Positions 1-2,993 of a DNA stretch of 2,993 bases are shown in pieces. The notes beneath the pieces were generated by a model, which was not told the origin of the DNA, ran no database searches, and was given only the letters and a program-made list of their open reading frames with translations. Source of the DNA: Escherichia coli (GTDB lineage: Bacteria > Pseudomonadota > Gammaproteobacteria > Enterobacterales > Enterobacteriaceae); NCBI RefSeq assembly GCF_003334335.1, contig NZ_QOWQ01000086.1; one strand, 5' to 3'. The stretch's first letter is position 1. Each line of letters starts with the position of its first letter. A program made the position numbers and the translations under genes.

Positions 1-157
1 CTTTATTATCGAGTTCGGTGACCGCCTGGACGGCCACTTCTGAGAAAAGGTATTTACACAGAATCCTGAACAGGCTCGAAAGGTGCGATGATTGCGTTAT
101 GCGGACACTGCCATTCGGTGGGAAGTCATCATCTCTTAGTATCTTAGATACCCCTCC

Positions 158-176
158 AAGCCCGAAGACCTGCCGG
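158..176 (+). promoter_or_regulatory. B12 box, conserved core element of the cobalamin riboswitch
   Basis: Seen: AAGCCCGAAGACCTGCCGG, which fits the B12-box consensus (approx. rAGYCMGgAgaCCkGCc) and lies ~85-100 nt upstream of the btuB start codon, the expected position. Confidence 0.8.
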
Positions 177-226
177 CCAACGTCGCATCTGGTTCTCATC
201 ATCGCGTAATATTGATGAAACCTGCG

Positions 227-250
227 GCATCCTTCTTCTATTGTGGATGC
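227..250 (+). promoter_or_regulatory. Hairpin sequestering the btuB ribosome-binding site (riboswitch expression platform)
   Basis: Seen: perfect 6-bp inverted repeat GCATCC (227-232) / GGATGC (245-250) with a 12-nt pyrimidine-rich loop. The 3' arm contains the only SD-like GGA (245-247), 9 nt upstream of ATG 257. Established: btuB translation is repressed by B12-dependent occlusion of the RBS by leader structure. Confidence 0.65.
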
Positions 251-256
251 TTTACA

Positions 257-316
257 ATGATTAAAAAAGCTTCGCTGCTGACGGCGTGTTCCGTCACGGC
301 ATTTTCCGCTTGGGCA
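257..316 (+). other. btuB: BtuB Sec signal peptide (20 aa), predicted cleavage after AWA
   Basis: Seen: [20 protein letters not shown] followed by QDTSPD; a basic n-region (KK), hydrophobic core and A-x-A signal peptidase I motif. Confidence 0.85.
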
Positions 317-2101
317 CAGGATACCAGCCCGGATACTCTCGTCGTTACTGCTAACCGTTTTGAACAGCCGCGCAGCACTGTGCTTGCACCAACCACCGTT
401 GTGACCCGTCAGGATATCGACCGCTGGCAGTCGACCTCGGTCAATGATGTGCTGCGCCGTCTTCCGGGCGTCGATATCACCCAAAACGGCGGTTCAGGTC
501 AGCTCTCATCTATTTTTATTCGCGGTACAAATGCCAGTCATGTGTTGGTGTTAATTGATGGCGTACGCCTGAATCTGGCGGGGGTGAGTGGTTCTGCCGA
601 CCTTAGCCAGTTCCCTATTGCGCTTGTCCAGCGTGTTGAATATATCCGTGGGCCGCGCTCCGCTGTTTATGGTTCCGATGCAATAGGCGGGGTGGTGAAT
701 ATCATCACGACGCGCGATGAACCCGGAACGGAAATTTCAGCAGGGTGGGGAAGCAATAGTTATCAGAACTATGATGTCTCTACGCAGCAACAACTGGGGG
801 ATAAGACACGGGTAACGCTGTTGGGCGATTATGCCCATACTCATGGTTATGATGTTGTTGCCTATGGTAATACCGGAACGCAAGCGCAGACAGATAACGA
901 TGGTTTTTTAAGTAAAACGCTTTATGGCGCGCTGGAGCATAACTTTACTGATGCCTGGAGCGGCTTTGTGCGCGGCTATGGCTATGATAACCGTACCAAT
1001 TATGACGCGTATTATTCTCCCGGTTCACCGTTGCTCGATACCCGTAAACTCTATAGCCAAAGTTGGGACGCCGGGCTGCGCTATAACGGCGAACTGATTA
1101 AATCACAACTCATTACCAGCTATAGCCATAGCAAAGATTACAACTACGATCCCCATTATGGTCGTTATGATTCGTCGGCGACGCTCGATGAGATGAAGCA
1201 ATACACCGTCCAGTGGGCAAACAATGTCATCGTTGGTCACGGTAGTATTGGTGCGGGTGTCGACTGGCAGAAACAGACTACGACGCCGGGTACAGGTTAT
1301 GTTGAGGATGGATATGATCAACGTAATACCGGCATCTATCTGACCGGGCTGCAACAAGTCGGCGATTTTACCTTTGAAGGCGCAGCACGCAGTGACGATA
1401 ACTCACAGTTTGGTCGTCATGGAACCTGGCAAACCAGCGCCGGTTGGGAATTCATCGAAGGTTATCGCTTCATTGCTTCCTACGGGACATCTTATAAGGC
1501 ACCAAATCTGGGGCAACTGTATGGCTTCTACGGAAATCCGAATCTGGACCCGGAGAAAAGCAAACAGTGGGAAGGCGCGTTTGAAGGCTTAACCGCTGGG
1601 GTGAACTGGCGTATTTCCGGATATCGTAACGATGTCAGTGACTTGATCGATTATGATGATCACACCCTGAAATATTACAACGAAGGGAAAGCGCGGATTA
1701 AGGGCGTCGAGGCGACCGCCAATTTTGATACCGGACCACTGACGCATACTGTGAGTTATGATTATGTCGATGCGCGCAATGCGATTACCGACACGCCGTT
1801 GTTACGCCGTGCTAAACAGCAGGTGAAATACCAGCTCGACTGGCAGTTGTATGACTTCGACTGGGGTATTACTTATCAGTATTTAGGCACTCGCTATGAT
1901 AAGGATTACTCATCTTATCCTTATCAAACCGTTAAAATGGGCGGTGTGAGCTTGTGGGATCTTGCGGTTGCGTATCCGGTCACCTCTCACCTGACAGTTC
2001 GTGGTAAAATAGCCAACCTGTTCGACAAAGATTATGAGACAGTCTATGGCTACCAAACTGCAGGACGGGAATACACCTTGTCTGGCAGCTACACCTTCTG
2101 A
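257..2101 (+). CDS. btuB: BtuB, TonB-dependent outer-membrane vitamin B12 (cobalamin) transporter; also receptor for E colicins and phage BF23
   Basis: Frame of the 212..2101 ORF. The true start is the internal ATG at 257 ([20 protein letters not shown]...), giving 614 aa plus TGA stop at 2099-2101. The translation matches my memory of E. coli BtuB along its length, including the signal peptide, the TonB box DTLVVTA and the C-terminal ...LSGSYTF with terminal Phe typical of outer-membrane beta-barrels. The upstream TTG 212 / ATG 215 lie inside the riboswitch leader and would give a non-signal-peptide N-terminus. Confidence 0.97.
332..352 (+). other. btuB: TonB box of BtuB (DTLVVTA)
   Basis: Seen: DTLVVTA at residues 6-12 of the predicted mature protein. 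Established: this is the canonical BtuB TonB box that contacts the TonB C-terminal domain. Confidence 0.9.
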
Positions 2102-2903
2102 ACCACGTCCCACCGTGCTGGTGTTTGACTCCGGCGTCGGTGGGTTGTCGGTCTATGACGAGATCCGGCATCTCTTACCGGATCTCCATTACATTTATGC
2201 TTTCGATAACGTCGCTTTCCCGTATGGCGAAAAAAGCGAAGCGTTTATTGTTGAGCGAGTGGTGGCAATTGTCACCGCGGTGCAAGAACGTTATCCCCTT
2301 GCGCTGGCTGTGGTCGCTTGCAACACTGCCAGTACCGTTTCACTTCCTGCATTACGCGAAAAGTTCGACTTCCCGGTTGTTGGTGTCGTGCCGGCGATTA
2401 AACCTGCTGCACGTCTGACGGCAAATGGCATTGTCGGATTACTGGCAACCCGCGGAACAGTTAAACGTTCTTATACTCATGAGCTGATCGCGCGTTTCGC
2501 TAATGAATGCCAGATAGAAATGCTGGGCTCGGCAGAGATGGTTGAGTTGGCTGAAGCGAAGCTACATGGCGAAGATGTTTCTCTGGATGCACTAAAACGT
2601 ATCCTACGCCCGTGGTTAAGAATGAAAGAGCCGCCAGATACCGTTGTATTGGGTTGCACCCATTTCCCTCTACTACAAGAAGAACTGTTACAAGTGCTGC
2701 CAGAGGGAACCCGGCTGGTGGATTCTGGCGCAGCGATTGCTCGCCGAACGGCCTGGTTGTTAGAACATGAAGCCCCGGATGCAAAATCTGCCGATGCGAA
2801 TATTGCCTTTTGTATGGCAATGACGCCAGGAGCTGAACAATTATTGCCCGTTTTACAGCGTTACGGCTTCGAAACGCTCGAAAAACTGGCAGTTTTAGGC
2901 TGA
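2046..2903 (+). CDS. murI: Glutamate racemase MurI (D-glutamate synthesis for peptidoglycan)
   Basis: Frame of the 2034..2903 ORF. The preferred start is ATG 2046 ([20 protein letters not shown]...), giving 285 aa plus TGA at 2901-2903, with GAGA (2036-2039) as a modest SD ~6 nt upstream. Asp/Glu-racemase motifs are present: VFDSGVGGL near the N-terminus and the two catalytic-cysteine motifs ACNTAS (Cys92, nt 2319-2321) and GCTHFP (Cys204, nt 2655-2657). The translation matches my memory of E. coli MurI. Confidence 0.95.
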
Positions 2904-2906
2904 TTT

Positions 2907-2921
2907 GGTTGAATGTTGCGC
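2907..2921 (+). promoter_or_regulatory. Candidate Fis site I of rrnB P1 (centred ~ -71)
   Basis: Seen: GGTTGAATGTTGCGC loosely fits the degenerate Fis consensus (G at position 1, C at 15, A/T-rich centre), centred ~71 bp upstream of the inferred P1 start. Established: rrnB P1 has Fis sites centred near -71, -102 and -143. Assigning a degenerate site by eye is weak. Confidence 0.4.
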
Positions 2922-2924
2922 GGT

Positions 2925-2985
2925 CAGAAAATTATTTTAAATTTCCTCTTGTCAGGCCGGAATAACTCCCTATAATGCGCCACCA
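2925..2985 (+). promoter_or_regulatory. rrnB P1 ribosomal RNA promoter: UP element, -35, -10, GC-rich discriminator and start region
   Basis: Seen: A/T-rich UP element CAGAAAATTATTTTAAATTTCCT (2925-2947), -35 TTGTCA (2949-2954), 16-bp spacer, consensus -10 TATAAT (2971-2976), then GCGCCACCACTG with the expected +1 at A ~2985. Established: this is the textbook rrnB P1 architecture, located directly downstream of murI in E. coli; 16S rRNA would begin beyond the window. Confidence 0.88.
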
Positions 2986-2993
2986 CTGACACG

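Follow-up and report, generated by a model that had tools for sequence, protein, structure and literature searches.

BtuB, the TonB-dependent vitamin B12 receptor of Escherichia coli, serves as the entry point for vitamin B12, E-type colicins and several phages, and the 5′ leader of its mRNA harbors the founding cobalamin riboswitch. Adenosylcobalamin (AdoCbl) represses btuB by ~97%, through sequestration of the Shine–Dalgarno (SD) sequence and then through Rho-dependent termination early in the open reading frame (ORF), and mutations that break either the pseudoknot or the helix P14 abolish the response to AdoCbl (PMC11162775). Among mobile elements, members of the IS256 family of insertion sequences (ISs) are described to form hybrid promoters, in which an outward-facing –35 element within the right inverted repeat is combined with a –10 element in the flanking DNA (PMC9330008). 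IS1414, an element of this family reported by McVeigh et al. 2000 (as cited in PMC12585946), has been described as carrying astA, the gene for EAST1 (PMC12585946). Here, we analyzed a stretch of 2,993 nucleotides (nt) of E. coli DNA (contig NZ_QOWQ01000086.1 of assembly GCF_003334335.1; hereafter, the window means this whole stretch), which in all probability represents the btuB–murI–rrnB P1 region with a copy of IS1414 in the btuB 5′ leader. Each of its parts (btuB, murI, rrnB P1, the AdoCbl riboswitch and IS1414) is already known, and an IS in a 5′ leader is an ordinary type of event; the specific IS1414–btuB leader allele is new to the collections searched. The significance of the finding lies mainly in a correction: a window that a preliminary description had considered fully explained housekeeping DNA holds a junction with a mobile element, at which btuB loses the sensor part of its riboswitch.

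Base-by-base comparison with the btuB locus of strain K-12 (L001) divided the window into two unequal parts. Positions 78–2993 are identical to K-12 (0 mismatches, 100% identity), whereas positions 1–77 have nothing in common with the K-12 leader. When the whole window was searched by megablast against 5426 complete E. coli genomes, which served as comparison set throughout, its DNA was found in all of them, and the best matches, K-12 MG1655 included, all began at base 78 and extended to base 2993 with 100% identity. The preliminary description had expected a near-full-length match to the btuB–murI–rrnB region and had named, as the outcome that would refute it, a partial match leaving over a segment that encodes a protein other than BtuB or MurI. 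The former was not obtained and the latter is, literally, what the searches returned.

The unmatched segment is the right end of IS1414 (positions 1–77, plus strand). A sensitive search with window positions 1–120 matched the ends of elements annotated as ‘IS256-like element IS1414 family transposase’, and bases 1–77 are identical at 77/77 positions to the IS1414 copies of strains Y5 (L002, 2501–2577) and TC_EC10 (L003, 3501–3577). Directly after this segment, the two copies agree neither with the window nor with each other, which identifies base 77 as the true terminus of the element. The end reads ...GAACAGGCTC up to base 77 and includes an imperfect terminal inverted repeat at roughly positions 48–77, so that terminal sequence, inverted repeat and the point at which identity stops all agree with IS1414. 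Frame 2 of positions 2–43 (plus strand) encodes FIIEFGDRLDGHF, followed by a TGA stop (41–43), and this is the exact C-terminus of WP_000343717.1, the 402-amino acid (aa) IS1414 transposase. The window therefore starts inside the transposase gene, whose last 13 codons are visible and identical to those of the reference, and this gene points toward btuB. The full-length reference transposase scores 426 bits on the NCBIfam model NF033543 (IS256 family transposase). The view that the window lacks any transposase-like ORF consequently had to be given up.

The Y5 copy of IS1414 (L002, 1263–2577) measures 1315 bp; its terminal inverted repeats are imperfect, and a target duplication of 8 bp, GAACGTTT, lies on either side of it. 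It holds an intact prototype astA (EAST1 enterotoxin) ORF at IS coordinates 788–904, nested in the transposase gene in another reading frame. As the right end of this reference is identical to that of the window, the source strain may be astA-positive, possibly in several copies. IS1414 right ends were present in 1036 of the 5426 complete genomes, most of them as diverged variants of 90–95% identity, in line with a report that most copies of IS1414 have decayed (PMC12585946). Only 53 records matched at 99% or better; the 77/77 identity of the window thus marks its copy as one of the intact, prototype type. An IS1414 copy located beside a ‘TonB-dependent receptor’ in TC_EC10 was considered as a possible counterpart and rejected, the neighbor being not btuB but another receptor gene, frameshifted and encoded on the opposite strand.

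To place the junction within the btuB mRNA, we rely on what is established for this gene and take the leader to be 240 nt in length and to start at L001 position 1440 (leader, L001 1440–1679). Since the btuB ATG lies at window position 257, the IS1414 terminus then abuts leader nucleotide +62, i.e. the junction falls between +61 and +62. What remains of the leader, +62 to +240, occupies positions 78–256 (plus strand) and shows 0 mismatches to L001 1501–1679. The preliminary description had assigned all of positions 1–256 to the leader, an assignment that stands for 78–256 and falls for 1–77; nor do the two coding sequences (CDSs) and their own regulatory elements fill the window, since bases 1–77 are a mobile-element end, with leader and riboswitch cut back to +62. 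Hence btuB is no longer joined to its native promoter, nor to the 5′ 40% of the aptamer. By analogy with the 8-bp duplication of the Y5 copy, positions 78–85 (GAAAGGTG; leader +62 to +69) are the putative right-hand copy of a target-site duplication. A simple insertion would place the left junction where ...GCAGCGGTAAGGAAAGGTG meets the left end of IS1414, GAGCCTGTACATAG..., with GAAAGGTG as the duplicated 8 bp.

The riboswitch feature annotated by RefSeq at L001 1425–1615 corresponds to window positions 2–192, and 76 of its 191 nt (L001 1425–1500) are replaced by IS1414. In the Rfam alignment of the intact leader, the 5′ strand of the fourth helix immediately precedes the break; lost with leader positions +1 to +61 are the 5′ strands of the closing and outer helices, together with two complete hairpins. 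Scored by covariance against the cobalamin riboswitch family RF00174, the intact K-12 leader reached 87.0 bits (E = 2.3e-22) and the window 18.5 bits (E = 0.084), the latter falling short of the gathering score of 31.5 bits. Forcing the window onto the RF00174 model produced many non-canonical pairs in place of a full set of helices, and no Rfam family scored above threshold anywhere in the window. The surviving 3′ 60% of the aptamer (positions 78–192, plus strand) includes the B12 box at 158–176 (AAGCCCGAAGACCTGCCGG), which conforms to the conserved AGCC.G.AGACCTGCC pattern and aligns to the conserved RF00174 segment, and the downstream helices persist. Also intact is the SD-sequestering hairpin of the expression platform (GGCAUCC/GGAUGCU; positions 226–251, plus strand), which was present in every predicted fold and corresponds to the helix P14 whose role has been described (PMC11162775). 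As a side observation, a 63-aa ORF with a GTG start crosses the IS–leader junction (positions 18–209, plus strand); it is a product of the insertion only and shows no sign of expression.

How might btuB be expressed from such an allele? A standard promoter scan detected no sigma-70-like promoter in positions 1–256. A promoter formed by the IS end, be it hybrid or outward, was considered as source of btuB transcription and rejected, since even a relaxed scan yielded at best 7–8 of 12 matches in this interval, none of them crossing the junction; a lone extended –10-like sequence (TGCGATGAT, positions 84–92) is native leader sequence. Likewise, no terminator-like site was seen in IS1414 or between the transposase stop codon (41–43) and the btuB AUG. 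Given neither a junction promoter nor a terminator, btuB would be transcribed only via read-through, with either the transposase promoter or the displaced promoter of btuB as its origin. As for control by ligand, a leader devoid of +1 to +61 would not form the ligand-binding core and, with 40% of the aptamer lost, would not bind AdoCbl, so that B12 would no longer bring about sequestration of the ribosome-binding site or the ensuing Rho-dependent termination. Judged from its sequence, btuB is therefore likely no longer B12-responsive. The outcome would be B12-insensitive expression at a low to moderate level, below wild type in the absence of B12 and possibly above it where corrinoids are abundant, and we lean, by a narrow preference, toward such low to moderate constitutive expression of btuB.

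Disruption of the btuB leader is rare: the K-12 leader was contiguous in 5422 of the 5426 complete genomes and split in no more than 2–4 of them. The IS1414–btuB leader junction itself was absent from this set, in which no genome covered at least 80% of window positions 1–120, and the exact 34-nt junction pattern returned 0 matches in GTDB representative genomes and 0 in JGI metagenome contigs. Literature searches for btuB leader or riboswitch alleles with an inserted IS retrieved no report of this kind, the hits on Klebsiella and Shigella proving unrelated. Two independent IS insertions in the btuB leader were recovered from the complete genomes. In strain MEI008 (NZ_CP074680.1; L010, 3233–4000), a 768-bp IS1 is flanked by a 9-bp duplication, GGAAAGGTG, that corresponds to leader positions +61 to +69. 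In strain HCM-22C-2 (NZ_AP038228.1; L011, ~3576–4904), a 1329-bp IS10-like element, ISVsa5, lies between the aptamer and the btuB start and has duplicated CGCGTAATA (+187 to +195). Its outside end abuts btuB, and the outside end of IS10 carries the outward promoter pOUT; by analogy, ISVsa5 could drive btuB free of riboswitch control. A partial leader match in STEC1587 was discarded: the leader there is divergent (93% identity), has its riboswitch annotated and is not interrupted by an insertion. Separately from these leader events, the btuB CDS was broken by IS421 (ECO-104), IS2 (RM10410) and ISApl1 (EC416) in other complete genomes, making btuB a recurrent IS target.

Taken together, the three independent leader events (IS1414, IS1 and the IS10-like element) all have IS-borne transcription directed toward an intact btuB, and two of them lie within 1 nt of each other (+61/+62). 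The coincidence of IS1414 and IS1 at the same leader position suggests an insertion hot spot or selection, and the arrival of an unrelated IS no more than one base away, in a second isolate, is a small lead in that direction. That three out of three insertions are directed toward btuB is not significant at n = 3. When cobamides are limiting, up-mutations upstream of ‘btuB-murI’ are selected in laboratory evolution (PMC10802341), and selection on this region can thus act in either direction. We consider it rather unlikely, if worth stating, that IS insertion into the btuB leader is a recurrent, selected ‘riboswitch bypass’ that renders the expression of BtuB (possibly of btuB–murI) blind to B12.

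The two ends of the window shed light on its origin. At the 3′ end, positions 2917–2993 comprise an exact stretch of 77 nt, the longest shared with K-12 rrnA and rrnC, in whose upstream regions it recurs, and identity breaks at position 2916. The repeat at the 5′ end, from position 1 to the IS1414 terminus, likewise measures exactly 77 nt. A unique core with exactly 77 nt of repeat on either side suggests a k = 77 de Bruijn assembly, and the window probably represents one complete short-read contig of this kind, broken at two repeats. The remainder of the IS probably resides on a collapsed repeat contig, which suggests that IS1414 right ends occur more than once in the source genome. The contig structure also supports the junction being present in the reads. 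As a practical warning, short-read contig ends carry pieces of repeats of k-mer length that are easily taken for native flank.

Several points weigh against a simple IS1414 insertion that leaves btuB expressed and blind to B12. The IS is visible for 77 nt only; its left junction is outside the window and its target duplication no more than predicted, so that a simple insertion and an IS-mediated deletion or inversion are not distinguished. Thermodynamic folding, which gave SD accessibilities of 0.25–0.28 in native, chimeric and truncated leaders alike and the SD hairpin in all three, was rejected as evidence, the ligand-free native leader being already predicted ‘OFF’ and the folds thus being uninformative on translation. 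The allele recurs in none of the complete genomes, GTDB representative genomes and JGI metagenomes searched, and no population evidence speaks for its selection. Moreover, IS insertions are often strongly polar, and btuB could be nearly silent. Under this last alternative, to which we grant a tangible if minority share of probability, the IS1414 insertion is polar, btuB is effectively silenced and murI is transcribed from its own promoter. The native btuB promoter has indeed been moved ~1.3 kb away, with no replacement promoter detectable at the junction, and the insertions of IS421, IS2 and ISApl1 inside the btuB CDS of other strains imply that loss of BtuB is tolerated and recurrent; reduced BtuB is reported to confer colicin resistance (PMC3050690). 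A perfectly intact btuB ORF argues against silencing, however, as does the co-orientation of the transposase gene with btuB without any terminator-like site between them; both other leader insertions, too, have IS-borne transcription toward btuB, and the three cases lend weak support to retained expression.

The remaining alternatives concern the structure of the locus and not its output. Were the junction the product of an IS-mediated deletion or inversion that removed or moved the trmA side together with leader positions +1 to +61, neither a target duplication nor an upstream leader remnant would remain. With the left junction outside the window there is room for such an event, and the TC_EC10 reference copy, which lacks a target duplication, demonstrates that rearranged copies of this sort exist; yet nothing in the window demands a rearrangement, and by default the element transposes in the simple manner and duplicates 8 bp, as in the Y5 copy, which leaves this scenario improbable. 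More improbable still is an assembly chimera, in which a 77-nt piece of IS was joined to the btuB leader of a strain whose own leader is intact. The 77 nt of repeat at each end do fit a k = 77 de Bruijn contig, the ends of which are its least reliable parts. But the breakpoint coincides with the IS1414 terminus to the base, unlike that of a random chimera, and it follows from the logic of de Bruijn graphs that the (k+1)-mer across positions 1–78 must occur in the reads and that, had a wild-type leader coexisted, the contig would have had to begin at position 78. The original proposal of an intact btuB leader at 1–256, within a window of pure btuB–murI–rrnB housekeeping DNA, describes bases 78–2993 exactly; it retains practically no credibility for the window as a whole, in which positions 1–77 are identical to IS1414 and do not align to the K-12 leader, and RF00174 stays below its threshold.

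Insertion of IS1414 into the btuB leader being the reading we adopt, its possible consequences differ with the level of expression retained. An allele that uncouples btuB from B12 control, or one that silences btuB, could alter nutrient scavenging as well as phage and colicin sensitivity in the strain. Silencing of btuB would yield a BtuB-deficient strain, which would resist E-type colicins as well as phages that depend on BtuB (BF23, T5-like).

Beyond the junction, the preliminary description proved accurate. Both CDSs match the RefSeq annotation of K-12 exactly: btuB (positions 257–2101, plus strand) is an intact ORF of 614 aa identical to its K-12 counterpart, and murI, encoding glutamate racemase (positions 2046–2903, plus strand; 285 aa), overlaps the btuB 3′ end by 56 nt. 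Residues 1–614 of BtuB scored 1112.2 bits on the NCBIfam equivalog NF007926 (cut-off, 836) and MurI scored 512.7 bits on the equivalog NF002034 (cut-off, 408). ORFs on the minus strand measure at most 106 aa and are all nested inside btuB or murI, as had been stated. Equally in agreement with the earlier claims, no repeat arrays were found in the window, in which repeat families amounted to chance two-copy matches only; tandem repeats and tRNAs were absent from the window as well. Bases 78–2993 are, in sum, the conserved btuB–murI–rrnB housekeeping DNA they had been taken for, with no sign of a novel or accessory system in the window beyond the IS itself.

Downstream of murI, the promoter rrnB P1 (positions 2925–2985, plus strand) was recovered as described, with an A/T-rich UP-element region, the –35 hexamer TTGTCA at 2949–2954, a 16-nt spacer, the –10 hexamer TATAAT at 2971–2976 and a start near A2985. 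Its hexamers, with 11 of 12 matches, were the only strong sigma-70 match in the promoter scan of the window, and the sequence is identical to that upstream of K-12 rrnB, where the 16S rRNA gene rrsB begins 292 nt past the promoter start. UP element, start site and promoter activity are presumed here from established knowledge of this promoter. A match to Ysr197, a Yersinia small RNA (sRNA), at positions 2902–2993 was dismissed as a separate sRNA gene: truncated and scoring 39.4 bits against a gathering score of 167, it represents the conserved rrn P1 promoter and leader. The Rfam family Ysr197 itself appears to overlap an rrn promoter/leader region.

Set beside the systems known so far, the locus combines features of several. 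With the K-12 btuB region it shares the same ORFs and their 56-nt overlap, rrnB P1, the B12 box and the SD-sequestering hairpin, but the btuB promoter and leader positions +1 to +61 are gone and IS1414 occupies the 5′ end of the window instead. Relative to the IS1414 reference, it has the same terminal 77 nt, transposase C-terminus included, as intact prototype-type copies, whereas only these last 77 of 1315 nt are visible. As in the hybrid promoters described for the IS256 family (PMC9330008), an element of this family faces a downstream gene with its right end; unlike in those cases, the window offers no acceptable –35/–10 pair across the junction. In HCM-22C-2, ISVsa5 likewise comes between aptamer and btuB without damage to the ORF, but there the aptamer, upstream of the insertion, retains its annotation as intact, and the transposase is encoded on the opposite strand. 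The IS1 insertion of MEI008 resembles the present allele in the leader affected, in a transposase that reads toward btuB, in a right junction within 1 nt and in the integrity of both btuB and murI, while the different element and the different strain mark it as an independent event.

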